Assembly: GCF_001866075.4 (NCBI RefSeq) | Contig: NZ_CP063356.2 | Span: 826,164-858,163, forward strand | Direction: 5' to 3' | Length of the DNA stretch: 32,000 bases | From: Anaerobacillus isosaccharinicus | GTDB lineage: Bacteria > Bacillota > Bacilli > Bacillales > Anaerobacillaceae | Shown: positions 1,659-28,601 of the stretch, one piece after another | Layout of the letters: every line of letters begins with the position of its first letter | Numbering within the stretch: the first letter of the stretch is position 1 | Translations under genes and position numbers: made by a program | Notes under the pieces: model-generated | Databases searched by the model: none | What the model was told of the DNA's origin: nothing | Seen by the model: the letters and a program-made list of their open reading frames with translations, nothing else

Positions 1659-2324
1659 TTGATCAGTGAAATAATTAAATTGAAAAACGATGGTTTGTCT
1701 ATAAAACAAATTGCAACTGAGTTAAATATACCGGTTAGTAAGATACAATATCGCTGGAATAAACATCGAAAAGAACAAAGTGAAGTTGGTTCCAGTAATG
1801 TTCAAAAAAAGGTTCAAACGAATAACCTAAATAAAAAATCCGATGCCAAAGTACATGATGATCATAAACAAACGAATCAATGTGTCTTAATGGCTCAATC
1901 TCCCAGAACACTTTTTTGTTATTGGAAGGTATCAAGTCATAAAATAAATGCCACTCTCCATCATCTAAATGAAAAGTGGTGTTCACTAGAAAGAAAAATA
2001 AGAATTTATGATATTACTTCGATTCTCTTTCGAGGAGATAACGCACACCGCTATCAAGAATTTTCACTTCCTATAAATTGTACTGATTGGTTTTTCTATC
2101 ACTTAATTCCTAATCGAACATATTGTGTCGATATTGGTGTTGTTTCGAAAGATGGAAACTTTTTTCCTCTACTTCGTTCCAACCCAATTGATACTCCTAG
2201 GTCAACTTCGTATGAAACGGGCCTTTATACAAATGGGGTTTCAAAATGGAAAGAGGGTAAATGTAACGAGCCTGAATGGTTAGAAGGTTATAGTAGTTAT
2301 TCCTACTATGAAAAATTAAAGTAA
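1659..2324 (+). CDS. DUF4912-family protein with an N-terminal HTH-like motif
   Basis: TTG start with GAGGTGA RBS. The central block CVLMAQSPRTLFCYWKVS matches the DUF4912 signature (hydrophobic-P-x-x-LF-x-YW). The N-terminus is IIKLKNDGLSIKQIATELNIPVSKIQYRW. The next gene starts 13 nt downstream. Confidence 0.6.
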   Translation: MISEIIKLKNDGLSIKQIATELNIPVSKIQYRWNKHRKEQSEVGSSNVQKKVQTNNLNKKSDAKVHDDHKQTNQCVLMAQSPRTLFCYWKVSSHKINATLHHLNEKWCSLERKIRIYDITSILFRGDNAHRYQEFSLPINCTDWFFYHLIPNRTYCVDIGVVSKDGNFFPLLRSNPIDTPRSTSYETGLYTNGVSKWKEGKCNEPEWLEGYSSYSYYEKLK

Positions 2325-2337
2325 GGGGGCTGGTTAC

Positions 2338-5127
2338 GTGGTAAATGGCTATTATTCAATTGTACTACATGCACACATACCTTTTGTAAGGCACCGAGAA
2401 AAAGAGAGGCTTGAAGAGCGTTGGTTGTTTGAAGCAATCGCTGAAACATATATTCCTCTATTATGGAATTTAGAAGAACAAGAAATTAAAAGTCCCGCTA
2501 TAACCATTTCTTTTTCAACACCTTTAATGGAAATGCTTGCTGACCCTCTTATGCAGAGAAGGTTTTTACATAACATTGAAAATATTCAGTCCCTGCTAAA
2601 CAAAGAAGTAAGAAGAGCAGAAACTGTTGTTGAAGAAGCGGATTTAGTAGACTTTTATATGAAACGGATTGCAAAAATTAAGAATACATTTTTAAAATAT
2701 GAACAAAACCTTCTAAAAGGATTTAAAAAGTTTGTGGATGAAGGAAAGCTAGTTTGTATATGTAGCTCTGCTACACATGCCTTTTTACCTTATTTACAAA
2801 CAAAAGAAGGGGTAAGAGCTCAAATTGTTCACGGTATCAGAACGTTTACAAAACATTTTGGAATGAAACCTAAAGGATTTTGGCTACCAGAGTGTGGATT
2901 CTCTCCTGGTATCGATCGCATTTTGTTTGAAGAAGGAATTCGCTATTCATTCGTTGACGAGCATGCCTTACTGTATGCAGACCCAACTCCTTCTAATGGG
3001 ACTGGAGCTCCTATATATTCCCCCCATGGGATTATGCTATTTCCACGTAACTCAAAATTGTCTAATCAAGTTTGGAGTTCAGTTAATGGTTACCCAGGTG
3101 ACTTTGATTATCGTGAATTTTACCGTGATATTGCCTATGACCGTGATTGGGAGTATATAAAGCCATACATGCATTCAAAAGGACATCGATTTGATTCGGG
3201 TCTTAAATATCAGCGGGTCACTGGCAATACAGAGGAAAAGGATTATTATTGTCGTGAAAATGCTTTATTGAAGACGAAAGAACATAGTCATCATTTCCTT
3301 AAATCTATTAAAGAACAACTAGCTGCTAATGAAGAGCAGTGTTTCCCTCCTTACTTGATTGTAACCCCATTTGATGCTGAACTATTTGGACATTGGTGGT
3401 TTGAGGGGCCAGATTGGCTAAATCAGTTGATAACAGATGGTAGTAACGAAGTAAATTTTATTACTCCTGAAGCTTTTTTAGAGCGGCATTATCAAGATTT
3501 AGAAACTGCACATGTGTCTTTTAACACTTGGGGAAGAAATGGGTTTGGTGAGGTTTGGTTAAATGAGAAAAATAGTTGGATTTATCCACAGTTACATCGT
3601 ATCGAAAAAGATTTAATTCATCTTGTTACGGAGTATAAAAAACAAGGAACTCAGGTTGAGCGTTGCTTAAAGCAAATGGTACGGGAATGGATGTTAGCAA
3701 CGAGTAGTGATTGGCCTTTCATACTTGATAGTAACAGTGCTACTCAATATGCAAATAGTCGTCTTAAGGAGCATATAAACCGCTATGACCAATTAAGAGA
3801 TTTCCTTGTGAACGAAAAATTAAATCACGAAATCTTAACGGAGTTTGAAGCAGAGTATCCATTTTTAAATGAGATCGTGCTAGATATACTTACTTCAAAC
3901 CATGATGATTATGTTTTGAGGGAAATAAAGGCCAAACAGGTAAAAAAACAGAGAAAGACAATCCTAATGTTAGCTTGGGAATATCCGCCAATGGTGGTAG
4001 GCGGTCTATCAAGGCATGTGTTTGATTTATCGAGAGCACTTGTGAAAGATGGTTGTGAGATTCACGTCATTACTACTGCAGTTTTAGGGCATCCAGATTA
4101 TGAAATAATGAATGGCGTTCATGTTCATCGTGTGAGTAGTTTACAGCCAAATGCAGATGAGTTTTATCACTGGGTTGGGATTCTAAATCTTAGTTTTATA
4201 GATTGTGCACTTGAGCTAGCAAAAGGAATTCATTTTGACCTAATCCATGCACATGACTGGCTTGTTTGTGTAGCAGCAAAATCATTAAAAGAGCAGTTGA
4301 GTTTGCCAATTGTTGCTACTATTCATGCTACAGAGCATGGCAGAAACAATGGGATTTACACAGAGTTACAGCAAAAAATCTCACAAAAAGAATGGGAATT
4401 AACCTTTGAGGCAAATAAAGTCATTGTTTGCAGTCAGTATATGAAAGAAGAAGTAATGAGAGTTTTCCAGTTGCCTTTGGAGAAGATTGAGGTTATTCCC
4501 AATGGTGTAGACGTTGAGATGATTACAGGAGTTGAAGAAAGTTGGAAACGAACATATGGTAAAGAAAGCGATTTTTTCATTTTTTCCGTTGGGAGAATCG
4601 TAAAAGAAAAAGGCTTTCAAACCATTATAGATGCCGCTCCAACTATTGTTAGCCAGTATCCAAATGTTAAATTCATCATCGCAGGAAAAGGGCCGCTTCT
4701 AGACGATTACCGTAATCAAGTAGTTCAAAAAGGCTTAAAAAATTGTGTTTATTTCATCGGCTTCATCGATGATAAGCTAAGAAATCAAATGTTTCATGGG
4801 TGTGACATATGTTTATTTCCTAGTTACTATGAACCATTTGGCATCGTTGCTCTAGAAGGAATGATTGCTGGTAAGCCAACCATTGTCTCTGATACGGGTG
4901 GTTTAGGGGAGATTATAAGTCATGAAAAAACGGGTTTAACCATTTATCCTAGTGACGTTCAAAGCTTAGTAAATCAAATTGCTAATTGTATCGATAATGA
5001 AGATCTAGCAAAGGAAATAGCTAAAAATGGAAAGATGCTCGCTGAAACAAAATATAGTTGGGAAGCGATTTCCAAAGAAACAATTTTAGTTTATGAAGCG
5101 AGCCTGGCTTTAATGGAAGTTAACTGA
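2338..5127 (+). CDS. Fusion protein: GH57/DUF1957 1,4-alpha-glucan branching-enzyme-like domain (aa 1 to ~530) plus GT4 retaining glycosyltransferase domain (aa ~541-929)
   Basis: GTG start with GGGGG RBS. GH57 hallmarks are YYSIVLHAHIPFVRH, GFWLPECGF (Glu185, codon 2890-2892) and PFDAELFGHWWFEG (Asp346, codon 3373-3375). GT4 hallmarks are ILMLAWEYPPMVVGGLSRHV and EPFGIVALE (EX7E). Confidence 0.8.
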   Translation: MVNGYYSIVLHAHIPFVRHREKERLEERWLFEAIAETYIPLLWNLEEQEIKSPAITISFSTPLMEMLADPLMQRRFLHNIENIQSLLNKEVRRAETVVEEADLVDFYMKRIAKIKNTFLKYEQNLLKGFKKFVDEGKLVCICSSATHAFLPYLQTKEGVRAQIVHGIRTFTKHFGMKPKGFWLPECGFSPGIDRILFEEGIRYSFVDEHALLYADPTPSNGTGAPIYSPHGIMLFPRNSKLSNQVWSSVNGYPGDFDYREFYRDIAYDRDWEYIKPYMHSKGHRFDSGLKYQRVTGNTEEKDYYCRENALLKTKEHSHHFLKSIKEQLAANEEQCFPPYLIVTPFDAELFGHWWFEGPDWLNQLITDGSNEVNFITPEAFLERHYQDLETAHVSFNTWGRNGFGEVWLNEKNSWIYPQLHRIEKDLIHLVTEYKKQGTQVERCLKQMVREWMLATSSDWPFILDSNSATQYANSRLKEHINRYDQLRDFLVNEKLNHEILTEFEAEYPFLNEIVLDILTSNHDDYVLREIKAKQVKKQRKTILMLAWEYPPMVVGGLSRHVFDLSRALVKDGCEIHVITTAVLGHPDYEIMNGVHVHRVSSLQPNADEFYHWVGILNLSFIDCALELAKGIHFDLIHAHDWLVCVAAKSLKEQLSLPIVATIHATEHGRNNGIYTELQQKISQKEWELTFEANKVIVCSQYMKEEVMRVFQLPLEKIEVIPNGVDVEMITGVEESWKRTYGKESDFFIFSVGRIVKEKGFQTIIDAAPTIVSQYPNVKFIIAGKGPLLDDYRNQVVQKGLKNCVYFIGFIDDKLRNQMFHGCDICLFPSYYEPFGIVALEGMIAGKPTIVSDTGGLGEIISHEKTGLTIYPSDVQSLVNQIANCIDNEDLAKEIAKNGKMLAETKYSWEAISKETILVYEASLALMEVN

Positions 5128-5294
5128 GTGAACCTTCATAAATACCAAATAGGAGCCATATCAAACTAAGTAACTTAATGGTAATAATATGGAATTATGA
5201 AATTCATTAATAAACAGAAATCTAGCATTCTACTAAAGGTAGGTAAATAAATTAAGTATTTTTTGAAATTGAATGGATTGGGGGGTTAATGTAG

Positions 5295-7736
5295 ATGAAA
5301 GCTGTTATTATGGCAGGTGGAAAAGGAACACGCCTTCGTCCTTTAACTTGTAACATTCCAAAACCAATGGTTCCACTTGTTCATAAACCGGTAATGGAGT
5401 ATTCAATCGAATTATTAAAAAAGTATGGAATTACTGAGATAGCAGTCACCTTGCAATATTTACCTGATGTAATTAAGGACTACTTTGGTGATGGTAGCCA
5501 ATTTGGAGTTAAATTGCATTATTTTGTGGAGAAATTGCCGTTAGGTACTGCTGGAAGTATAAAAAATGCACAAAAATTTTTAGATGAACGTTTTGTGGTT
5601 ATTAGTGGCGATGGTTTAACAGATTTCAATCTTTCAAAAGGAATCCAGTTCCATCTTGAAAAAAATGCACTTGCAACTATTTTCATGAAACAAGTTGAAA
5701 CCCCACTTGATTATGGTGTGATTTTGACGAATGAAAATAATGAAGTTGTTAGGTTTATAGAAAAACCAAATTGGAATGAGGTATTTAGTGATACCGTTAA
5801 TACAGGAATTTATGTGTTAGAGCCTGAAATTTTCACTTTTTTAGAGGAAGGCGTACCGACTGATTTTAGTAAAGATACGTTCCCATTGTTAATGAAAGAA
5901 AAACAGGCGATATTTGGTTTTAAAGCAGATGGTTATTGGTCCGATGTTGGTAATCTCTACTCTTATCGAGAAACTCAGTTTGATATGCTAAAGAAGAAAG
6001 TTCAGGTTTCACTACTTGGTAATGAAACTAATGAAGGCATTTGGATTGGGAAAAATGTCCACATTGAAGATGATGTAACTTTAAATGGGCCTATTTCAAT
6101 AGGTGATGGTACAGTCATTCGCTCAGGATCGATTTTAGATGGGCAATGCATCATAGGTAAGCATTCTATCCTTTCAACAAATTGCACGTTAAAAAAGTCG
6201 ATATTATGGAATGATATTTACGTTGGAGATAGTAGTGAATTAAGAGGTACAACCATTTGTAAAGGAACAAAATTAGAAAATTCTGCTTCGCTCTATGAAG
6301 CTTCTGTCATAGGTGAGCAATGTACAATTGCTTCCAATGCCATCATTAAACCTGAAGTAAAAGTATGGCCGAATAAAACAATTGAAGAATCAGCTATTGT
6401 TCATACGTCTTTAATATGGGGGAAAAAGATTACAAGATCCCTTTTTAACGGGAGAGGGGTATCGGGTTTAGCCAATGTGGAAATTACACCTGATTTCTTC
6501 GCAAGGCTGGCGTCCGCATATGGGGCTGTATTGCCACAAGGAGGCAAAATTGTCTTAGGCTCTGATAGTTATTCGATTACGAATTTAATGAAATCATCTT
6601 TTCAAACCGGGATATTGTCTGCAGGTATTAGCACGGTTGATATTGGTATAACAATACCCCCAATCGTTCGTTTTACGGTGGAAAGAGAACCTGTCATTGG
6701 CGGGGTATATTTCCGTTTTGTAAATCGTAATGGTGAAATGCAAATTTCTGCTGAGTTTTATGATGGTAAAGGCTATCCCATCTCTGCAGAACTTGAAAGA
6801 AAAATTGAAAATGCTTTTTGGCAGGAGGATTATCGTCGCGCCTCTTTTGACCAAATTGGTTTTAGCGCATCGGTAAATAATGTTGAAGATAGCTATATAA
6901 ACAGTTTAATTAGTTTGATTTCGATAAAACAAATTAAAAATGCAAATTTAAAAGTTATTATTGGCTTTGAGCACTGTCATCATTTCTACTTCGTACCTAA
7001 ATTGCTTGAAAAATTAAATTGTGAGATCTACACAGTACCAAATCACAAAGCCCCAATCGAATTATCCAAATATGTCCAAGGAGTTGGAGGGGATTTAGGA
7101 ATTTTAATTGGGGAAACAGGAGAGTTCTTAAAGGTGATTACCGAAGAAGGGGAAATAGTAGCAGATGAAACGATGTTAGCTCTTTATATTATGCTCCATT
7201 TTTATGAGAAAAAAGAGGGAATTATGGCAATACCACATCATGGCTCTAGTGAATTAGATATCTTAGCCAAAAGATTAGGTGGGAAAATTGTTCGAACAAA
7301 AGCTGATCCAAGATCAATTATGGAAAAAGAAGGAAGTGTGTTCACTTATTTATTTGATGCTCAGTACGCGTTTATTCACATTGTCGAAATGATGACCAAA
7401 CAAAATATAAAGTTATCACAACTTATTAAGATGTTGCCAAGTATTCATTTATTAAGTGAGTCCGTTTATTGTCCTAAAACTGCTAAAGGGTTAGTGATGA
7501 GAATTCTTATGCAAGAAAATAGTCAGTCCAAGATTGAGTTATTAGATGGAATAAAAGTTCACCATCCTGATGGTGGCTGGACATTGATTTTACCTGACCG
7601 TGAAAAGCCAGTGTTTACTGTCTATTCACAGGCCAAAGATTTAAACATAGCTAGACAACAGTCGTCAAATTACGTCAAGAAAATTCTAAATATTCAAAAG
7701 TATCAAGATTTAGAAACGGTAGGTGATAATAAATGA
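5295..7736 (+). CDS. Sugar-1-phosphate nucleotidyltransferase (N-terminal, plus hexapeptide-repeat region) fused to a degenerate phosphohexomutase (PGM/PMM)-like C-terminal region
   Basis: The N-terminus is [18 protein letters not shown]...PKPMVPL (GxGxRL NTP-transferase signature). Residues ~250-360 show an I/V/L-G-x hexapeptide periodicity. The C-terminal 430 aa align by eye to alpha-D-phosphohexomutases, but TASHNP is RFVNRN (6714-6731) and DGDGDR is GETGEF (7110-7127). Confidence 0.75.
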
Positions 7737-8359
7737 AGTACATTCATAATAAGGAACAATGCAAATTAAAGTATGGTGTATGGGTTGATGGTTTTTTTAC
7801 ATGGTTAGATAGAGATGGCTGGATATGTGAAACTAACGGTAGCAATCAGCAAAAAGTATTTACTAATCATAGAATCAACCTTTCAATCACAATACTACCA
7901 ATGTTTTATGGTGAAACGATGCTTCAAGTCATTACTATTCAAAATTCATACGATAAAAATAGAGAGATAAGGCTTTTCTTTACCCAGGATCTCATGGAGT
8001 TTGCCGAAGAGAGTATTACATTTTATGCTCCATCAGTCCAAGCAATCGTCCGCTCTTATAATGATCATTACTTATTATTAAATGGCGTTATGAATAACCG
8101 CGGTATCGTTCAATATTGTACTGATTTTGATGAGTTTTGTCCGTTAAATGAAGGTATCGTTATGATGCAACCATTTTCGCAATGTAGTGAAGTAAGTATT
8201 ATTAGCTTGGAAGGTGAAATAGAGGCTAATCAAAGGATTGAAGCCTATTTTTGGATATGTGAAGGTAAAAATGAAAACGAAGTTCTAAACAGTAATACGA
8301 TTACACAGTTAAACCTTCCTCTAGTTAATTGCGAAACACAATTATGTTCGAAATACTAA
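7733..8359 (+). CDS. Hypothetical 208-aa protein, possibly related to the N-terminal beta-sandwich domain of GH15 glucoamylase-type proteins and lacking any catalytic domain
   Basis: ATGA start/stop overlap with the upstream gene indicates translational coupling. The block [42 protein letters not shown] resembles, from memory only, the FFxxDFxI...TAYYDP...YFLING block of GH15 N-domains. Confidence 0.4.
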
Positions 8360-8372
8360 TAAAAAGAAGTAC

Positions 8373-8401
8373 TTGATTGTTAGCATGTATTTTGCTATTA
8401 T
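8373..8401 (+). promoter_or_regulatory. Sigma-A promoter of rpmG
   Basis: TTGATT (8373-8378), 17 nt, then TGcTATTAT (extended -10, hexamer 8396-8401), 44 nt upstream of the rpmG ATG. Confidence 0.55.
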
Positions 8402-8444: not shown

Positions 8445-8594
8445 ATGCGTGTAAATATTACATTAGCTTGTACAGAAACTGGTGATCGTAACTATATCAC
8501 TACTAAAAATAAACGTAATAACCCAGACCGTCTTGAGTTAAAGAAATATAGCCCAAGATTAAAGAAATATACTGTGCATCGCGAAACTAAGTAA
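8445..8594 (+). CDS. rpmG: 50S ribosomal protein L33
   Basis: Not in the ORF track because it is shorter than 60 aa. Translation is [49 protein letters not shown] (49 aa). GGAGGG RBS lies 7 nt upstream and a terminator follows. Confidence 0.95.
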
Positions 8595-8620
8595 GCAGAC
8601 TTGTCTGCTTATTTTTTTTT
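8593..8620 (+). terminator. Rho-independent terminator of rpmG
   Basis: AGCAGA/TCTGCT stem (8594-8609) followed by a T9 run (8612-8620). Confidence 0.8.
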
Positions 8621-10479: not shown

Positions 10480-11460
<981 letters not shown>

Positions 11461-11471
11461 AGATACGCTGT

Positions 11472-11529
11472 AAAACCTAATTTACTTGACTTTTGATAAA
11501 ACAAATTGAATTAGGTTTTTTTATTTTTC
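11472..11529 (+). terminator. Probable terminator after ldh
   Basis: AAAACCTAATT (11472-11482) pairs with AATTAGGTTTT (11508-11518) and is followed by a T-rich tail. The loop is unusually long (~25 nt). Confidence 0.5.
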
Positions 11530-11577
11530 TAGAATAAATAAGTCTCATTAATCAAAACTTAGTAATGAGGTGAAGGA

Positions 11578-11784
11578 ATGATGTTTAATAACAGAAATAA
11601 TGATAACAATATGTTCATGACATTGGTAATTTCAATGGTATCGGTATTCTTTATTTATCAATACAGATACCGATTAATTAATCTTGTATTAGGAACGAGA
11701 TGGATCCGCCGTTTAGCGGTTTCCGGTGCATTACAAATTCCATTTATTCGGGATCGGTTTTATTCAAGGTTTATGCCATTCTAA
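11578..11784 (+). CDS. Small membrane protein, function unknown
   Basis: 68-aa ORF with GAGGTGAAGGA RBS, one hydrophobic segment and its own terminator. Confidence 0.5.
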   Translation: MMFNNRNNDNNMFMTLVISMVSVFFIYQYRYRLINLVLGTRWIRRLAVSGALQIPFIRDRFYSRFMPF

Positions 11785-11810
11785 AATTGGAAATAGTTAA
11801 ATGATTAGTA

Positions 11811-11840
11811 AGAGAAGTGGGCAAATGTCCACTTCTTTTT
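11811..11840 (+). terminator. Rho-independent terminator
   Basis: AGAGAAGTGG / CCACTTCTTT stem with an 8-nt loop, followed by a T run to 11840. Confidence 0.8.
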
Positions 11841-11906
11841 CAATATTAAGTACTTCATTCGAAAATATAGGTAATGATTGGTATAATCATTCTAAGGGGG
11901 AGTAAC

Positions 11907-12644
11907 ATGAGATGGAAAACGATTTGTTTCGATTTGGACAATACACTTTTTAGTCATGAAAAGGCATTTGAGAAGTCAATTTGTTTTTGTTTTGAATCTG
12001 TTCTTAAGAAAAAGGATCTCCTTAAAGACATTGAGATAAGTGAGCTTTTTAAGGTTTTTAAAAAATATAGTGACCTTTTTTGGACAGATTATGAGAATGG
12101 GGTTTTGTCGCCACAGGAGTACCGCAGAAAGAGGTTTTTAAGTACTGTAGAAAATTTCAAGTTACCATTCACTACTCTAGAAGCAGATGAATTTCATCAA
12201 CATTATTACCGTGTTGTTGATGATTTTAGTGAGCCATACCCCTATTTACACTCTTTAATAAGTAATTTAATCGAAGCAGATATAAAAGTAGGTATTATTA
12301 CAAATGGGACTGCCGATACTCAATATAATAAAATAAATAAATTAGAGCTTAATGAATGGATATCAAATGATTGTATTTTCGTTTCAGAAGAATTAAAGAT
12401 ATGGAAACCAGACAGAAAAATATTTGATTTAGCAAAAGCAAATTTATGCTCAGAAGGTGACTATCTGTTTGTGGGCGATTCTTGGGAGCATGATGTTGTT
12501 GGTGCAATAGAAGCGGGCTGGGATGCTATATTTTTAAATACAAGAGAAGAGGAACCTAAAACAAACCATAACCCAGTGAAAATTTGTCTTAGCCTCCAGG
12601 ACGTTGCTACATTTATTTATCATGAAAACAAGTTGGAAGGATGA
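11907..12644 (+). CDS. HAD-superfamily (subfamily IA-like) hydrolase
   Basis: The ATG at 11907 (AAGGGGGAG RBS) gives MRWKTICFDLDNTLF (DxDxT motif I). VGIITNG is motif II-like and LFVGDSWEHDV is motif IV-like. Confidence 0.75.
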   Translation: MRWKTICFDLDNTLFSHEKAFEKSICFCFESVLKKKDLLKDIEISELFKVFKKYSDLFWTDYENGVLSPQEYRRKRFLSTVENFKLPFTTLEADEFHQHYYRVVDDFSEPYPYLHSLISNLIEADIKVGIITNGTADTQYNKINKLELNEWISNDCIFVSEELKIWKPDRKIFDLAKANLCSEGDYLFVGDSWEHDVVGAIEAGWDAIFLNTREEEPKTNHNPVKICLSLQDVATFIYHENKLEG

Positions 12645-14278: not shown

Positions 14279-15157
14279 TTAAAATCTACCAGTATTTTTA
14301 ATGACACTATATTTTTCCCCATCCTTATTAGTGAAAACAATAATAATATGTGAATACGTGTTGTGATAGAGAATGAGGGGAATGCTACTGCCTACGGGAC
14401 TTAAAATCGTTCCGTCATGCTTTTCTATTCCTAGAAAATAATATTTATAGATAGAACTCCATGTAAGAGCTATCATTTCTTTTGTGTCCTCAATTGTTAA
14501 ATTTGGTAGTGATGTATTATTATATTCATATAGGTTTGTTAATGGTACCGAGTGGTAGTTCTCTGCTTTAACTTGAAAGTAGTCAATAAGTTCCTCCCAA
14601 GTATATTGCAAGTTTTGATTAATGATCGTATCTAAAACTCTTTTTCCTTCTTTTTCAGAAGGAGTTTGTGGACTTTTAAAGAATTCTATCGGACTTAACG
14701 GGGAGTCTAGTATATACATTTGATCATAACTCATTGATTGTACGCTTTTTGTTACATCATTGGGGTAATGGAATTGCCCGTAATGAAAAGTAATTGTCTC
14801 AAAGTGTCCACTATCTTCACCAGATATTTTTGCTGTTTGGGTCAATTTTTGACTGTTTTCTTTAGTCTGTGATAGTGTTTCTTTTAACCGCCCATCTTCA
14901 AACAATAAAGAGATATCGTGGGCGATGTACATCTTTTCGTTAATTTCAGAGCTTGTTTTCCATTCCATCGTATATTCATCTTCATCATGTTGATCAATCA
15001 ATTGGAGTGTTGTTTTAACTTGCTTAAATTTCTTCTTCTCATCTATAGGGTAATTCGCAATTGTTTCTTGAACTGTTTCTTTCAAAGTTGTGAAATAATA
15101 AAGTAGACTTCCAGTCAAAAATGCTATAATTACGGTCCCAACTAGTAATTTTTTCAA
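14279..15157 (-). CDS. N-terminally membrane-anchored hypothetical protein (292 aa)
   Basis: Long ORF with a single N-terminal TM segment (LLVGTVIIAFLTGSLLYYF). I recognise no family motif. Confidence 0.6.
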   Translation of the reverse strand: MKKLLVGTVIIAFLTGSLLYYFTTLKETVQETIANYPIDEKKKFKQVKTTLQLIDQHDEDEYTMEWKTSSEINEKMYIAHDISLLFEDGRLKETLSQTKENSQKLTQTAKISGEDSGHFETITFHYGQFHYPNDVTKSVQSMSYDQMYILDSPLSPIEFFKSPQTPSEKEGKRVLDTIINQNLQYTWEELIDYFQVKAENYHSVPLTNLYEYNNTSLPNLTIEDTKEMIALTWSSIYKYYFLGIEKHDGTILSPVGSSIPLILYHNTYSHIIIVFTNKDGEKYSVIKNTGRF

Positions 15158-21635: not shown

Positions 21636-23520
21636 ATAGACTCTCGGAATAAATGATGAGTTTATCGAAGATTTGTAAAAAATTTACTGGGAATTTCATT
21701 AACAGGACAGCAAAGTGATGTGTTTTCATAGTGTTTTCAAAAAAGTGTATACCAAATAAGCCTACGGCTGCTATTTTTTAAAAATGACTAGGCGCTCTTA
21801 GAAAAGATGATTTCTTGGATGTTCAAAGTCTCTTTCTGACTACTGTACCAAGCATCTATGTGTTGACACATCATGATTGAATATAAGCGGACATACCACA
21901 TTTTTGTAGAGCGATGACGCCCAGATTCTAAGTGATAGTCGACTTTTTCTCTTTTGTTCGAACGTTCAACTGAAGTTCTTCGTTTATAAATCAGTTTCCA
22001 CTTTTCAGAAGACCTCGGTGTTTTAGTGAACAGACGAAGATTATCTTGCTTAAACGTATGAAATGTCCGGCCATACTTCGCTTTAGAACACGGAGTGGAA
22101 CATGTATTTTTTGTTCCGCAAGCTAGTGGACAACGCCACTTTTGGCGGTTTTGAGATTTGTCAAACCCATTGGGTTTCATTTCCATTCCAATTGGACAAA
22201 TAGGAACGCCTAGGGGAGAAATCTGAATATCACTTTGCGTACTGAAGTTTTTCTTTGTTCGAACATTAAGATCAATAAATGGTTCCACATTATGATGGTC
22301 CAGTAATTCGTAAATCGGTTCTGCATCATGTGCGGCATCGAGAAGGATTTTATCAATTGTGCCCAAGGTGTACCGTTGCGAAAATTCAATTGAACCAACC
22401 ACTAGGCTGACTGAATCATGCCGGGAAGCAGGATGCAGCCGTGGATATAGCGGCAAGTCGTATTGGCTATCGCTAGTGGATATCATGTAGAGATGATATC
22501 CGTTGAAGTACCTCTCCCGTGAACTATCCCAACCTGAGTCGATGTCAGGTTGAGAATATCGACGAGGATGAGTACAATTCGTTAGTCCTTGGGCACTACA
22601 ATCACAAATAGGTTTGCTCCTTGGGTATCTCGCTGTTTCCACGGGTGTCCCATCTCCAACAACACCAAGGGAATGGGGATCCCCAAGCAAACCCAATCTC
22701 GCTGAAACTTCAAGAAATTGAGATTGAAAAAACGCGTATAATTGATCTCCCGGCAATTGTTTTTGTTTTGAGCCATTGCGTAAATGACGATCCACTAATT
22801 TTCTAATAATACCAGGGTTTCTAGGAGTTGCTTTTTCACCCTTTTTCGGTTTTTTCTTCTTCTTCTTTTTTCGTTTGAGCTTAATAAAAGGTTTTACATT
22901 AGCCTTCTCAAAACCTGATAGCCGTCTGAAGAAGTCATAAAAAGTACCGACACCTGGAACATCCCCAGGTTCAAAGCCGCTAAGGATCGTGTAAAGAGGA
23001 ACACGATGGAGTTGGTTCACCCATTCTGTAATACTCAGGGTCGGACTTGTCAATAAACACAAAAGATAAGAGCGAAGCATGGAAGCAGGATCACGTGGCT
23101 CAGGACCTTTAACTGAATATGAATCATGAAGCCACGTAGTGGTAAACGAAAGATCCGTGATCCATAACTTCGAGATAATAGTCCAATCTTTTTGTACGAG
23201 AGTCAGTATACCGCCTGAGTAATGAGTATTTAATTGGTCTAAAACGAAGTTTTGATATGAGATATGTGGTATTAGCGCAGGTTTCATTTAAATCCCCCAT
23301 TTCACCGTATTGTTAGGAAGTCAATTCCTCCTCGGCGATTATTGGGGTTCCACTAAAAAGTCAAGTGTTTTTTTAGTTTTTTTATGATATTTTTCAACAA
23401 TTAATTTCCAATTGAAGAAGAAAACTAAAGTAAAAATCCCACCTAGAAATAGGAGGGATACAAATAAATTGGTTCAAGAAAACCTTGAGCCACAAGGCTC
23501 GGCAAATGCCGAGAGTCTAT
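21636..23520 (-). mobile_element. Intact insertion sequence, 1885 bp, IS4/IS5-superfamily DDE type (IS1182-like?)
   Basis: 12-bp perfect terminal inverted repeats: ATAGACTCTCGG (21636-21647) and CCGAGAGTCTAT (23509-23520). They are flanked by direct TAAG repeats (21632-21635 and 23521-24). The element carries a single 499-aa transposase ORF. Confidence 0.85.
21788..23287 (-). CDS. DDE transposase (Y-2-R-3-E-6-K motif; DUF772-like N-terminal region)
   Basis: YKRRTSVERSNKREK fits the YREK signature of IS4/IS5-type transposases. The N-terminal block RDPASMLRSYLLCLL...ITEWVNQL is DUF772-like. The protein also has a Cys-rich region and a lysine run (KRKKKKKKKPKK). GGGGGA RBS. Confidence 0.85.
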   Translation of the reverse strand: MKPALIPHISYQNFVLDQLNTHYSGGILTLVQKDWTIISKLWITDLSFTTTWLHDSYSVKGPEPRDPASMLRSYLLCLLTSPTLSITEWVNQLHRVPLYTILSGFEPGDVPGVGTFYDFFRRLSGFEKANVKPFIKLKRKKKKKKKPKKGEKATPRNPGIIRKLVDRHLRNGSKQKQLPGDQLYAFFQSQFLEVSARLGLLGDPHSLGVVGDGTPVETARYPRSKPICDCSAQGLTNCTHPRRYSQPDIDSGWDSSRERYFNGYHLYMISTSDSQYDLPLYPRLHPASRHDSVSLVVGSIEFSQRYTLGTIDKILLDAAHDAEPIYELLDHHNVEPFIDLNVRTKKNFSTQSDIQISPLGVPICPIGMEMKPNGFDKSQNRQKWRCPLACGTKNTCSTPCSKAKYGRTFHTFKQDNLRLFTKTPRSSEKWKLIYKRRTSVERSNKREKVDYHLESGRHRSTKMWYVRLYSIMMCQHIDAWYSSQKETLNIQEIIFSKSA

Positions 23521-24998: not shown

Positions 24999-25634
24999 AT
25001 GAAAGATTTTCGTTTATATGCGATAACTGGAGAAGAATTTCACAAAGGAAGAGATTTAATTCAAGTAATGGAGGAGGCAATTCTTGGTGGAGTCGATATT
25101 ATCCAACTTAGAGATAAATATAGTAGCAAAAAAGAAGTGCTTAGAAAGGCAAAACTATTAAAAGAACTAGCAAAAAAATATGATATACCATTAATTATTA
25201 ATGACCATATTGATGTGGCACTTGCCGTGGACGCAGATGGTATACATATTGGCCAAGATGATTTGCCGCTAGAAGAGGCCAGAAAAATTATCGGTAAAAA
25301 TAAAATAATCGGTATTTCAACTCATGAAATTGAAGAAGCACGAGAAGCCCAGAAAAATGGAGCCGATTATATCGGAGTTGGACCTATCTTCCCAACAAAA
25401 AGCAAAGTAGATGTGGTTGATCCTGTTACGACAAAATATATTGAGGAAGTAGTAAAGGAAATCACGATTCCGTTTGTGGCAATTGGTGGTATTAAACTGC
25501 ATAATGTTGATCAAGTGTTAGATGCAGGAGCAACTAGAATTTGTGCGATCAGCGAAATTGTTGGCAATGAGGATGTAACAAGAGTTTGTCAATTATTTAT
25601 AAAAAAAATCGATGAAAGGTTGTTGATTAAGTGA
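24999..25634 (+). CDS. thiE: Thiamine-phosphate synthase
   Basis: GGAGG RBS. Motifs LYAIT, IIQLRDK, LIINDHIDVALAVDADGIHIGQDD, GVGPIFPTKSK and VAIGGI, which are ThiE-type rather than TenI-type. Confidence 0.85.
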   Translation: MKDFRLYAITGEEFHKGRDLIQVMEEAILGGVDIIQLRDKYSSKKEVLRKAKLLKELAKKYDIPLIINDHIDVALAVDADGIHIGQDDLPLEEARKIIGKNKIIGISTHEIEEAREAQKNGADYIGVGPIFPTKSKVDVVDPVTTKYIEEVVKEITIPFVAIGGIKLHNVDQVLDAGATRICAISEIVGNEDVTRVCQLFIKKIDERLLIK

Positions 25635-25864: not shown

Positions 25865-26671
25865 ATGACAATAGGAAAAGCTTTAACAATTGCTGGTTCT
25901 GATTGTGGTGGCGGTGCTGGGATTCAAGCAGACTTAAAAACGTTCCAAGAGCGTGATGTATTTGGAATGAGTGTAATAACCGTGCTAACAGCTCAAAATA
26001 CGTTAGGAGTTCATGGTGTATTTCCCCAAACGTTAGAAGCCATTGAGGGACAAATGGATGCTATTTTTCAAGATATGGGAGCTAATGCGGTAAAAACAGG
26101 GATGCTCTTTTCAGAAGAAATTATTAATCTCGTTGCCGATAAATTAGTACAATATGAAGTGAAAAATGTTGTTGTTGATCCTGTCATGATTGCAAAAGGT
26201 GGGGCTCCGCTTCTACAAAAACAAGCAATGAATGCTTTAAAAACAAAATTACTCCCATTAGCGACAGTGATTACACCAAATATCCCTGAGGCATGTGAAA
26301 TTCTTGGATTCTCTTCAATTGATACATTAGAGGAAATGAAAGACGCAGCCAGTGCCTTACAAAAACTCGGGCCAAGGTTTGTTGTATTAAAAGGTGGACA
26401 TTTAGAAGATGAAAATGAAGCTATCGATGTTCTTTTTGATGGGGAAAGTTTTCACTATTTTGCAGCGAAAAGAATAAAGACAATTCATACACATGGTACA
26501 GGTTGTACATTCGCGGCTGCAATCACAGCAGAATTAGCTAAGGGTCAAGATATAAGAGCAGCTGTAACAACAGCTAAGAATTTTATCCAAGCTGCTATTG
26601 AGCAATCTCTTTGTATTGGAAAGGGAATTGGCCCAACAAGACATAGTGCATATCGTAATAAAAAAGATTAA
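25865..26671 (+). CDS. thiD: Hydroxymethylpyrimidine/phosphomethylpyrimidine kinase
   Basis: ALTIAGSDCGGGAGIQADLKTF, KTGML, VVDPVM and the GTGCTFAAAITAELAKG anion hole. 268 aa. Confidence 0.9.
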   Translation: MTIGKALTIAGSDCGGGAGIQADLKTFQERDVFGMSVITVLTAQNTLGVHGVFPQTLEAIEGQMDAIFQDMGANAVKTGMLFSEEIINLVADKLVQYEVKNVVVDPVMIAKGGAPLLQKQAMNALKTKLLPLATVITPNIPEACEILGFSSIDTLEEMKDAASALQKLGPRFVVLKGGHLEDENEAIDVLFDGESFHYFAAKRIKTIHTHGTGCTFAAAITAELAKGQDIRAAVTTAKNFIQAAIEQSLCIGKGIGPTRHSAYRNKKD

Positions 26672-27530: not shown

Positions 27531-28601
27531 TTGATTAAGGGCATGTCTTATCAAAATGGGATATTCTTTATGGGAAAACGTCATATTTCTTGCGCTTATC
27601 ATGATCAGGGGAAGATTGTTGAATGGGTAAAGCCGTTAATTGGTAAATCACTTTTTATTGCATGTAAACAAGTCGTCATGGCAATGCCGCTGTGGTTTAA
27701 AATGTTCTCACTCCTTTATTTCGGAATGATTTTCATACCAAAATTCTCTACCTTAATTGGAAATGAATTTGCTTGGCAGGGATTTCCGTTTTATTTTTTG
27801 TTTTACTACATGTTTGGAACTCATTTTATTTTCCCTACTAGTTTACGTAAGTATCACGGTGCAGAGCATAAAGTATTTAGTTACCGGGGCGTTAAAGCGA
27901 TGTATAATGCTGAAAAAATAAAGCAAGCGAAAATTACTAATCGATATTGTTCTACAAATCTCGTTGTCGTTTATTTTCTCAGTGTCATTTTTTTAACGTT
28001 AGTGGCGTTAATATACTATCCGTTCCTTATTGCACTTGCCTGGGCTTCATATGGAGCTATTATAGTAGCGCCTTTAATAAATTCTCAGTTAAATCGTTTT
28101 GGTATGGGAGGATTTCGTCATTTTGTATTGAAGATTTCTTATTTTCTTCAAGAGCGAGTGACAACAGCACAACCGGACGATTTTCATATTAGAACAGCTA
28201 TTAGATCTTATCGACGGCTTGCTTTAAAGGAGTTCCCAAATGAACTTAAAGAACCAGTCAAACTGAAAAAGGAGGAAAAGAAATTGGCAATTGTAGATAT
28301 TACTATTATTCCGATCGGTACGAATGGACCAAGTGTAAGTAATTATGTAGTAGAAATCCATAAGGTGTTAGAGAGTTTTGGTGAAAAAGTCAACTTTCAA
28401 TTAACACCGATGAGTACGATTATAGAAGGTGAATTACCGGTATTATTCGAAGTCATCCAAGCGCTACATGAAGTTCCATTTGCGAAGGGTGTTCAAAGAG
28501 TGGCAACAAATATCCGGATCGATGATCGCCGCGATAAAGAGCAAACAATGTCAGGGAAATTAAATAGTGTTGAAGAAAAGCTAAAAAAAACAGAGATATA
28601 A
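27531..28601 (+). CDS. In-frame fusion: divergent DUF1385 (YqhQ-like) membrane domain plus UPF0045/DUF77 (MTH1187/YkoF-like, YqgV-like) domain
   Basis: The N-terminal part carries DUF1385-like blocks (MGKRH, LRKYHGAEHKVF, TTAQPDDFHIRTAIRSY) and several TM segments. The C-terminal 105 aa (AIVDITIIPIGTNGPSVSNYV...TPMSTIIEG...ATNIRIDDRRDK) are UPF0045-like. An internal GGAGG (28271-28275) followed 8 nt later by TTG (28284) lies in the same frame. Confidence 0.65.
   Translation: MIKGMSYQNGIFFMGKRHISCAYHDQGKIVEWVKPLIGKSLFIACKQVVMAMPLWFKMFSLLYFGMIFIPKFSTLIGNEFAWQGFPFYFLFYYMFGTHFIFPTSLRKYHGAEHKVFSYRGVKAMYNAEKIKQAKITNRYCSTNLVVVYFLSVIFLTLVALIYYPFLIALAWASYGAIIVAPLINSQLNRFGMGGFRHFVLKISYFLQERVTTAQPDDFHIRTAIRSYRRLALKEFPNELKEPVKLKKEEKKLAIVDITIIPIGTNGPSVSNYVVEIHKVLESFGEKVNFQLTPMSTIIEGELPVLFEVIQALHEVPFAKGVQRVATNIRIDDRRDKEQTMSGKLNSVEEKLKKTEI

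Follow-up and report, generated by a model that had tools for sequence, protein, structure and literature searches.

We suggest that a four-gene operon in a 32,000-nt stretch of the Anaerobacillus isosaccharinicus genome (contig NZ_CP063356.2, positions 826,164 to 858,163; hereafter the window) is a cytoplasmic system for nucleoside diphosphate (NDP)-sugar-dependent synthesis and remodelling of an alpha-glucan, and that it belongs to a family conserved across Bacillota; we put the probability of this reading at about 0.6. An earlier note, made from the sequence alone, had called the module non-canonical. That is true in comparison with the classical GlgBCDAP set, but operons of this type are common and conserved in Bacillota, though biochemically uncharacterised. 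The locus is an ordinary example, and the databases annotate its genes generically. The open reading frames (ORFs) of the window were scanned with the profiles of Pfam and NCBIfam, and our statements about the genome refer to the window. The four genes and their domains are listed below.

1659-2324, + strand: ORF1, DUF4912 protein (WP_071317338, 221 aa; Pfam PF16258)
2338-5127, + strand: ORF2, GH57::GT4 protein, predicted to be bifunctional (WP_071317337, 929 aa, GTG start)
2359-3876, + strand: GH57 (beta/alpha)7 catalytic domain and BE_C helical domain of ORF2, residues 8-513 (PF03065, PF09210)
2890-2892, + strand: codon of Glu185, the predicted nucleophile
3373-3375, + strand: codon of Asp346, the predicted acid/base
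3958-5115, + strand: retaining GT4 half of ORF2, GT-B fold, residues 541-926 (PF13439, PF00534)
5295-7736, + strand: ORF3, putative sugar-1-phosphate nucleotidylyltransferase::LbH::pseudo-phosphohexomutase (WP_071317336, 813 aa)
5298-5987, + strand: NTP-transferase domain of ORF3
6036-6344, + strand: LbH domain of ORF3
6438-7682, + strand: PGM-like domain of ORF3
7733-8359, + strand: ORF4, stand-alone homolog of the GH15 N-terminal domain (WP_071317335, 208 aa; profile search and fold match)

The four ORFs are co-oriented on the + strand between 1659 and 8359. The gap between ORF1 and ORF2 is 13 nt, that between ORF2 and ORF3 is 167 nt, and ORF3 and ORF4 share a 4-nt ATGA overlap, exactly as the earlier note had described. 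In the terminator scan no terminator-like hairpin was found in the 167-nt gap or anywhere else inside the cluster. By their close packing, the ATGA overlap and the lack of a terminator between them, the four genes form an operon, in which ORF4 appears to be translationally coupled to ORF3 via the overlap. All four are under purifying selection; the ratios of nonsynonymous to synonymous substitution rates (dN/dS) against a 96%-identical metagenomic relative were 0.20 for ORF1, 0.13 for ORF2, 0.15 for ORF3 and 0.38 for ORF4. The G+C content of the module (0.33-0.37) resembles that of the remainder of the window, and its composition is native. A horizontal-transfer island was ruled out by this match and by the synteny of the locus with those of relatives. 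In the 96%-identical relative (L005) the spacer between ORF2 and ORF3 likewise measures 167 nt; that of A. alkalidiazotrophicus (L004, 10775 to 10793) is much shorter, about 18 nt.

ORF2 is annotated in the database as '1,4-alpha-glucan branching protein domain-containing/DUF1957'. It matches Glyco_hydro_57 (PF03065; 154.8 bits, cutoff 21.2, residues 8-329), BE_C (PF09210; 87 bits, residues 419-513), Glyco_transf_4 (PF13439; 111.5 bits, residues 554-727) and Glycos_transf_1 (PF00534; 143.2 bits, residues 735-899), and the N-domain of its GT4 half also matches the starch-synthase catalytic domain PF08323 with 68 bits. The DUF4912, GH57, GT4 and NTP-transferase domains that had been proposed from the sequence alone were all recovered by searches with the hidden Markov models (HMMs) of Pfam. 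The segments WLPECGF (Glu185) and PFDAELFGHWW (Asp346), singled out earlier as holding the catalytic pair, align with Thermotoga maritima AmyC (2B5D) and with the glycogen branching enzyme (GBE) of Thermococcus kodakarensis (Tk-GBE, 3N8T), and neither residue varies among 12 diverse fusions aligned down to 44% identity. The GT4 half contains the GG motif (G555 G556), GRxxxxKG (R753, K758) and the EX7E motif EPFGIVALE (E832...E840) which had also been noticed; E832, E840, R753 and K758 are invariant in the same 12-fusion alignment. Judged from these alignments, the catalytic residues of the GH57 and GT4 halves appear intact. The relatives of the GT4 half in the PDB are sucrose-phosphate synthase 6KIH at the top, Pyrococcus abyssi GlgA 3FRO and GlgM 6TVP.

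The GH57 half is of the AmyC-type 'loop-less' class. Its closest PDB match over the full length is AmyC (2B5D, E 2e-123), to which it aligns without gaps over residues 180-240. In the place of the flexible loop that covers the cleft in a 'true' GBE, the region DEHALLYADPTPSNGTGAP is gap-free against loop-less AmyC and falls about 10 residues short of the loop in T. kodakarensis. The beta5-beta6 insertion after conserved sequence region III is lacking as well, with a 15-residue gap opposite 'agewelpggrkvkrq' of Tk-GBE (3N8T), and the scores fall below the equivalog cutoffs of the branching-enzyme models in NCBIfam (NF041133, 312.5 against 1000; NF041566, 271.8 against 920). Xiang et al. (2021) found that about 92% of about 2500 GH57 'GBE' sequences are loop-less, including AmyC and Mycobacterium tuberculosis Rv3031, and that enzymes of this class branch amylose very poorly or not at all (PMC9291813). 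The earlier note had proposed a polymerase fused to a branching activity. The fusion is real, but branching had been assumed. Since loop-less enzymes are nearly inactive on preformed amylose in vitro, with little branching or none, branching is no more than one possible reaction of the GH57 half. Xiang et al. considered that the loop-less GH57s may belong to unidentified pathways or act on the growing chain (PMC9291813), and the GH57::GT4 fusion fits the idea of a growing chain.

The comparative evidence comes from five neighbourhoods, an 80-locus genome survey and the window, all annotated with custom HMMs. Of these 86 loci, 27 carry a GH57 fused to a glycosyltransferase (GT) domain, and in 59 the AmyC-like GH57 stands alone. 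Across them the four gene families are co-localised in differing arrangements, in Bacillota and beyond, and are functionally linked. Full-length GH57::GT4 fusions of 920-985 aa occur in at least 120 database clusters across Bacillota, with carriers in Anaerobacillus, Halalkalibacter(ium), Fictibacillus, Alkalihalobacillus, Alicyclobacillus, Paenibacillus, Brevibacillus, Tumebacillus, Effusibacillus and others. Of the 59 stand-alone GH57 genes, 19 have a separate GT4 gene within 3 kb. Those beside unfused GH57 in Clostridia and in one actinobacterial metagenome-assembled genome (MAG; L047, 397 bits) score about 400-543 bits over the full length against a profile of the fused half, compared with 20-143 bits for the remaining GT4s of these loci. 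The adjacent stand-alone GT4s thus belong to the same subfamily as the fused half, and the fusion is therefore a true Rosetta-stone link.

Two Acidobacteriota MAG 'fusions' (L026, 1219-4371; L033, 10001-13192) have GH57 proteins of 1050-1063 aa, the C-terminal GT of which reaches only 31-43 bits against the profile of the Bacillota GT4 half. They were excluded from the fused family for their different C-terminal domain and look like an independent fusion to a different glycosyltransferase; without them there are about 25 orthologous fusions, all in Bacillota. L033 has an additional separate GT4 of the usual subfamily (267 bits). In a neighbour-joining tree of GH57 domains, which is crude and lacks support values, fused and stand-alone forms are parted by a single split of the unrooted tree, and monophyly of the fusion was not obtained after midpoint rooting. 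The single split fits one fusion or fission event. Exiguobacterium artemiae (L018, 10001-12184) has a 727-aa fusion homolog with a truncated GT4 half (match at residues 552-703) that is not at a contig end and may be a decaying or frameshifted copy. In Alicyclobacillus fastidiosus (L002), insertion sequence (IS) elements lie inside the operon at 4341-5657 and 11208-12372 (DDE_5/DDE_Tnp_1; rve/HTH_Tnp_1), where they split glgP and part the fusion from the NTP::PGM gene.

DUF4912 is a near-constant neighbour of GH57 across many phyla. Among the loci with enough upstream sequence, it lies directly upstream of GH57 in 23 of 25 fused and 41 of 55 stand-alone cases (64/80 in total), and its identity was confirmed with Pfam in 10 diverse loci. 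The hosts of the DUF4912-GH57 pair include Clostridia, Omnitrophota, Planctomycetota, Acidobacteriota, Myxococcota, Desulfobacterota-like MAGs and Helicobacteraceae. ORF1, annotated as 'DUF4912 domain-containing', starts with TTG preceded by GAGGTG and scores 97.1 bits against PF16258 (gathering score 29.4), with weak matches to HTH_23/HTH_28 at residues 4-40. Its AlphaFold2 (AF2) model (pLDDT 78.7 overall, >90 in the core) predicts a three-helix N-domain resembling a helix-turn-helix (HTH) at residues 1-45, a disordered linker, an FN3/Ig-like beta-sandwich at residues 74-173 and a low-confidence tail. The beta-sandwich core is the only part shared by the whole family. The N-terminal add-on varies, being HTH-like in Bacillales and Rho_N in one MAG, and a Rho_N add-on has been reported for cyanobacteria (PMC13613805). 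Foldseek returned generic FN3/Ig-like domains only for the model and allowed no specific inference, and DUF4912 was rejected as a recognisable carbohydrate-binding module. The C-terminal tail of ORF1, PEWLEGYSSYSYYEKLK, is rich in Ser and Tyr and strongly conserved in Bacillales, and a short motif of roughly [FW]xx[GN][FMIL]SS stands at or near the C-terminus of DUF4912 proteins in distant phyla; this conservation suggests that the tail may serve for docking, as a lid or as an acceptor site. Examples of the motif include EGFSSYSYY (Bacillales), F..G(M/I)SS (Acidobacteriota and Myxococcota) and NPSS..SSFK (gut Clostridia), and the tail of ORF1 is encoded at 2270-2321.

ORF3 ('sugar phosphate nucleotidyltransferase' in the database) matches NTP_transferase (PF00483; 193.2 bits, residues 2-231), LbH_EIF2B and PGM_PMM_I (58 bits, residues 382-513), and has a G-G-x-G-T-R-L-type nucleotidylyltransferase signature at residues 8-18. 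The nearest solved relative of its N-half is 8X7S, annotated as a UTP-glucose-1-phosphate uridylyltransferase (E 3e-63), with GDP-mannose pyrophosphorylases close behind. It reaches no pyrophosphorylase equivalog cutoff (GlgC, GalU, RmlA, ManC); the best is NF052502 with 235 against 440, and the GlgC models give 124-130 against 425-470. The C-half aligns over about 410 residues with the archaeal PGM/PMM structures 9DU5/1WQA (E 1e-31 to 1e-33). The PGM-like fusion of the earlier note is therefore real as homology, but the catalytic loops are all lost and the domain is no source of glucose-1-phosphate. The phosphoserine loop (T/G-A/S-S-H-N-P) reads FVNRNG, with Ser replaced by Asn; the metal loop DGDxDR reads GETGEF; the sugar loop GEx(S/N)G is deleted; and the phosphate loop (R-x-S-x-T-x-P; RASGTEP in PGM/PMM) reads LPDREKP. 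All four are lost in 18 of 18 aligned fused homologs from Bacilli, Clostridia, Symbiobacteriaceae and Helicobacteraceae, which have a motif of their own, GW.L.LPD..EP, and a genuine stand-alone PGM from one locus, taken as a control, retains every canonical loop. By this alignment the domain is a conserved, catalytically dead pseudo-mutase. An active PGM that supplies glucose-1-phosphate was ruled out by the absence of the four loops.

The four-domain fold of alpha-D-phosphohexomutases (PGM/PMM/GlmM; Pyrococcus horikoshii 1WQA) is thus recognisable in ORF3, but the phosphoserine, the metal-binding Asp triad, the sugar loop and the phosphate loop of these enzymes are not. Fusions of an NTP-transferase with a phosphomannomutase are known in archaea, and ORF3 resembles them in joining a mutase-like domain to a sugar-1-phosphate nucleotidylyltransferase. 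Genes for NTP::LbH::pseudo-PGM accompany 13 of the 27 fused loci and five unfused ones in varied orientations and gene orders, in Bacilli, Clostridia, Symbiobacteriaceae and Helicobacteraceae. In Halalkalibacterium halodurans and one Alicyclobacillaceae MAG a short 249-aa NTP-transferase takes their place. In two Helicobacteraceae MAGs (L041, 1607-6706; L077, 1710-8259) the NTP::LbH::pseudo-PGM gene has one or two further large GH57 paralogs (650-710 aa) directly after it, with the AmyC-like GH57 gene a few kb downstream of them; DUF4912 precedes this AmyC-like gene in L041 but not in L077. These loci appear to be a different elaboration of the same toolkit in Campylobacterota.

ORF4 is 'hypothetical' in the database and has no direct sequence match in Pfam, NCBIfam or PDB (phmmer); its identity was resolved only by profile search and fold comparison, which bore out the 'GH15-N-like' label of the earlier note. 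A word-based search gave 11 relatives (clusters) in Anaerobacillus and its kin. A profile of the family then matched 299 proteins among 1.84 billion representatives, many of them 640-690 aa long and matched at residues of about 40-240, and in five long matches checked by Pfam (four of 663-686 aa, one of 488 aa) all were GH15, with the catalytic domain after the matched region. Against residues 42-230 of the syntenic full-length GH15 of Fictibacillus, ORF4 has 23% identity (E 4e-13). Its AF2 model is an all-beta sandwich (pLDDT 72, pTM 0.73), and Foldseek matched it to the N-domains of GH94, GH65 and GH15, including glucodextranase 1UG9 and bacterial glucoamylase 1LF6. ORF4 is thus homologous to the N-terminal super-beta-sandwich of these prokaryotic GH15 enzymes in profile and fold, and unlike them it has no (alpha/alpha)6 catalytic domain (PF00723; ORF4 has no Pfam match) and therefore cannot be a hydrolase.

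In at least eight Bacillota loci a full-length GH15 gene (660-683 aa, N-domain and catalytic domain) comes after the NTP::PGM gene or after the fusion. GH15 lies upstream in three further loci (two Alicyclobacillaceae, one Paenibacillus), and the upstream GH15 of Alicyclobacillus fastidiosus is glucodextranase-like and stands beside GlgP. The N-domain alone at the GH15 position is found in the Anaerobacillus lineage only. We suggest from these comparisons that what survives in ORF4 is the non-catalytic N-domain of a GH15, whose gene is found at full length in this position in relatives. Because only 85 nt separate ORF4 from rpmG (ribosomal protein L33), the catalytic domain would have been cleanly lost. 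ORF4 is intact in 11 clusters down to 39% identity, with 34 invariant columns in the family; with these and its dN/dS of 0.38 we ruled out a decaying pseudogene, and it is still constrained, less strongly than the other three genes. Pfam has no model for the family of stand-alone GH15-N proteins, which are about 200-270 aa long.

The operon could work as follows. The N-terminal domain of ORF3 would convert a hexose-1-phosphate, most likely glucose-1-phosphate, and NTP to NDP-glucose, as its fold and motifs suggest. The GT4 half, a retaining GT-B enzyme of the subfamily found beside GH57 genes in many phyla, would add alpha-1,4-linked glucose to the growing chain. On this chain the tethered GH57 half, with Glu185 and Asp346 intact, may act in cis, by transglycosylation or by trimming, to branch it, transfer chains or control its length. 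ORF1 would be the obligate partner of GH57, probably a beta-sandwich adaptor whose Ser/Tyr-rich tail docks on the enzyme, and its Bacillales-specific HTH-like head may add regulation. The PGM-like pseudo-enzyme of ORF3 is probably a sugar-phosphate-sensing or scaffolding domain, and ORF4 may be a leftover, reduced to the non-catalytic N-domain, of the GH15 hydrolase found in the complete operon of relatives. The product would be an intracellular alpha-glucan, perhaps a short specialised oligomer and not bulk glycogen. No signal peptide or transmembrane helix was predicted in any of the four proteins, with a clearly positive rhomboid protein of the window as the control, and the system is therefore cytoplasmic. 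An envelope or secreted product was ruled out by the same absence.

An argument for an alpha-glucan is that all characterised relatives, namely AmyC, GH57 GBEs, the GlgA/GlgM/Rv3032-type GT4s and GH15, act on alpha-glucans (PMC9291813; PMC4981310; bioRxiv 10.1101/2023.02.13.525685). Several points weigh against the proposal. We infer every catalytic step, sugar, nucleotide and product of the module, and the roles given to DUF4912, the pseudo-PGM and ORF4 are conjecture. The specificity of ORF3 for sugar and nucleotide is ambiguous, since its best NCBIfam model is a mannose-1-phosphate guanylyltransferase (235, cutoff 440) and most of its PDB relatives are GDP-mannose pyrophosphorylases. The GT4 half reaches no equivalog threshold, with a sucrose-phosphate synthase as the top PDB match, and AmyC-type GH57s show little branching in vitro (PMC9291813). 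Rv3032 appears to be restricted to specialised oligomeric glucans such as methylglucose lipopolysaccharide (MGLP), without a contribution to bulk alpha-glucan (PMC4981310), and no measured activity for any member of the fused family was found in the literature searched. The self-contained route to a branched glucan in the earlier note is a plausible hypothesis, but its product may be a specialised oligomeric glucan, as for Rv3032 (PMC4981310).

A second explanation is glucan turnover or conversion, in which the GH57 half is an intracellular amylase that breaks down stored glucan, assisted by the GH15 glucoamylase in relatives, and NDP-sugar is turned by the GT4 half into a compatible solute or small glycoside of the sucrose-phosphate, trehalose or glucosylglycerate type. 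AmyC was first described as an alpha-amylase and its PDB entry is so named, the top PDB match of the GT4 half is sucrose-phosphate synthase 6KIH, the hydrolases GH15 and GlgP co-localise in relatives, and many carriers are alkaliphiles or halophiles. However, the match of the GT4 N-domain to the starch-synthase catalytic domain does not fit, the operon has no phosphatase or acceptor-supplying gene, and a degradative amylase fused to a disaccharide synthase has no obvious rationale. The GH15 catalytic domain was lost in A. isosaccharinicus while the rest of the operon was kept. We consider this explanation unlikely.

The fusion could also be a maltose-1-phosphate channel, an idea we find decidedly doubtful. 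The GT4 half would be GlgM-like (NDP-glucose + glucose-1-phosphate to maltose-1-phosphate) and the GH57 half a GlgE-like maltosyl polymeriser, the fusion preventing release of a toxic intermediate. This would explain why loop-less GH57s, which have no known good substrate (PMC9291813), are nearly inert on amylose alone. The best NCBIfam model of the GT4 half is TIGR02149 (glgA_Coryne, actinobacterial GlgA/GlgM; E 1e-43), GlgM 6TVP is among the top PDB matches, and RjoGlgAb, the Rhodococcus homolog of Rv3032, has maltose-1-phosphate synthase activity (bioRxiv 10.1101/2023.02.13.525685). But the TIGR02149 score of 149.7 is far under the cutoff of 302.4, with GlgA, sucrose-phosphate synthase and GlgM scoring alike and giving no discrimination, and AmyC does act weakly on amylose. 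To our knowledge, no GH57 uses a sugar-phosphate donor.

Synthesis of a mannose-based, GDP-mannose-dependent glycan or glycoside would make ORF3 a GDP-mannose pyrophosphorylase and the GT4 half a mannosyltransferase. The motif at residues 8-18 together with LbH is typical of enzymes of the GDP-mannose pyrophosphorylase (GMPP) type, the best NCBIfam match of ORF3 is man1P_GTase_Rv and several of its PDB matches are mannose-1-phosphate guanylyltransferases. We hold this to be highly improbable, however, in view of the uridylyltransferase annotation of 8X7S, of partners (GH57, GH15, GlgP) from families whose characterised members act on alpha-glucans, and of a dead mutase domain that leaves no phosphomannomutase function. 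Envelope, spore or extracellular polysaccharide synthesis can hardly be credited: nearly all fusion carriers are endospore-forming Bacillota and GT4 enzymes often build envelope glycans, with many such weak NCBIfam matches here, but the four proteins lack export signals, the locus has no flippase, polyprenyl-phosphate transferase, exporter or sporulation-type gene, its conserved promoter looks sigma-A-like, and the DUF4912-GH57 pair also occurs in non-sporulating phyla.

For alpha-glucan synthesis and remodelling, the closest known analogue appears to be the mycobacterial pair of Rv3032 (a GT4 alpha-1,4-glucosyltransferase) and Rv3031 (GH57, a putative branching enzyme), which constitutes a 'non-classical' alpha-glucan or MGLP route (PMC4555173; PMC9041414; PMC6686919). 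In both systems a GT4 glucan elongator is genetically coupled to a loop-less GH57 in the cytoplasm; in ours the linkage is a single ORF, and in unfused loci an adjacent GT4. Rv3032 has the same Pfam pair, PF13439 and PF00534 (PMC6686919), and Rv3031 is a GH57 without the flexible loop and the beta5-beta6 strands that is inactive on amylose (PMC9291813). Unlike in mycobacteria, both enzymes are one polypeptide in A. isosaccharinicus, the operon adds DUF4912, the pyrophosphorylase::pseudo-PGM and the GH15 remnant (a full GH15 in relatives), and the window has no MGLP-type methyltransferase or acyltransferase genes, the flanks being housekeeping genes of the yqg region. The only actinobacterial locus sampled (L047) is without DUF4912 and is an outlier in the GH57 tree. 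RjoGlgAb adjoins a putative branching-enzyme gene, and its preprint places such analogues in some Actinobacteria only (bioRxiv 10.1101/2023.02.13.525685). Our survey suggests that a functionally analogous GT4-GH57 coupling is much broader than Actinobacteria. A 2024 review noted GT4 genes beside GH57 genes in some archaea and speculated on an uncharacterised glycogen synthase (PMC11046441).

AmyC itself (TM1438) shares with ORF2 the context of the catalytic Glu and Asp, the absence of the flexible loop and of beta5-beta6, and the BE_C domain, and it has low branching and hydrolytic activity (PMC9291813). It differs in being a stand-alone protein of 528 aa, where ORF2 adds a C-terminal GT4, and in retaining the loop-region Tyr, where ORF2 has N. 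The classical GlgC-GlgA-GlgB route (glgBCDAP of Bacillus subtilis) runs likewise from sugar-1-phosphate to NDP-sugar, alpha-1,4 chain and remodelling, and the NTP-transferase with LbH resembles GlgC. In contrast, the operon has GT4 and not GT5, GH57 and not GH13, a pyrophosphorylase like GMPP/UGP, and other accessory proteins. As the earlier note had stated, GT5 GlgA, GH13 GlgB, GlgC/D and GlgP are all absent from the window ORFs scanned. Literature searches on the fusion, DUF4912, DUF1957, GH57 in halodurans and 8X7S found no characterisation, and no paper in the literature searched describes a GH57::GT4 fusion, a DUF4912-GH57 linkage, the pseudo-mutase or the stand-alone GH15-N family.

The features that surround the operon are the following.

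1497-1551, + strand: putative regulatory region (upstream-region alignment, six species)
8373-8401, + strand: promoter-like site of rpmG itself (sequence read)
8445-8594, + strand: rpmG (sequence read; Ribosomal_L33 at the same position in relatives)
8589-8614, + strand: intrinsic terminator (terminator scan)

In the upstream region, a near-palindromic block AGACATTTTTCTACAAAATAGAC at about 1497-1519 is directly followed by a predicted sigma-A-like promoter with a -35 element TTGTTG (1523-1528), a 17-nt spacer and a TG-extended -10 element TAAGAT (1546-1551). In the six-species alignment the block and the hexamers are kept in two Anaerobacillus species, B. salitolerans and F. norfolkensis. The block is a candidate operator, possibly for the HTH-like head of ORF1 itself. 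Rfam had no match near the module, and the idea that the leader (432 nt) or the spacer (167 nt) contains a riboswitch or a structured RNA was discarded. The first strong intrinsic terminator 3' of the module is that at 8589-8614, after rpmG, and is likely the 3' boundary of read-through transcription. The flanking genes (5-formyltetrahydrofolate cyclo-ligase, rpmG, rhomboid, ROK glucokinase, YqgU) match the yqg region, in agreement with the context recognised by the earlier note.

Elsewhere in the window, a DDE transposase ORF (499 aa, 21788-23287, - strand) coincides with a G+C peak of 0.425 (22001-23000), and this IS element sits between the ROK glucokinase gene and the YqgU-like gene. A 292-aa ORF without a Pfam match (14279-15157, - strand) lies between the rhomboid and M42 peptidase genes, and H. 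halodurans (L001, 16646-17524) has a 292-aa gene without Pfam matches at the equivalent place. A thiamine pyrophosphate (TPP) riboswitch (RF00059, 24806-24910, + strand; 69 bits, E 8e-12) is upstream of a 211-aa ORF (24999-25634), with thiamine-related genes nearby for a phosphomethylpyrimidine kinase (25865-26671) and a Thiamine_BP domain protein (27531-28601).

In a wider and rather unlikely form of the proposal, DUF4912, a loop-less GH57 and a dedicated GT4 would be a widespread, unrecognised alpha-glucan machine distinct from the GlgA/GlgB and GlgE routes. The GH57 would work only on the nascent chain of its partner GT4, hence the fusion in Bacillota, and the Ser/Tyr-rich tail of DUF4912 would be a glycogenin-like protein-bound primer or an in-trans lid that replaces the missing GH57 loop. 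If this holds, it would account for what the roughly 92% of GH57 'branching enzymes' that are nearly inactive in standard assays do in the cell.

Enzymes that combine polymerase and transglycosylase in a single polypeptide could serve the production of designer alpha-glucans. By analogy, the 'third' alpha-glucan route of the Rv3032/Rv3031 type may extend beyond Actinobacteria. GH57 'glycogen branching enzymes' are widespread, and the role of the loop-less ones has been called puzzling and ascribed to 'yet to be identified pathways' (PMC9291813). The locus gives this class concrete partners, namely a fused GT4, a near-obligatory DUF4912 neighbour, a pyrophosphorylase with a pseudo-mutase and GH15, and it provides a first functional context for DUF4912 and for the stand-alone GH15-N family.

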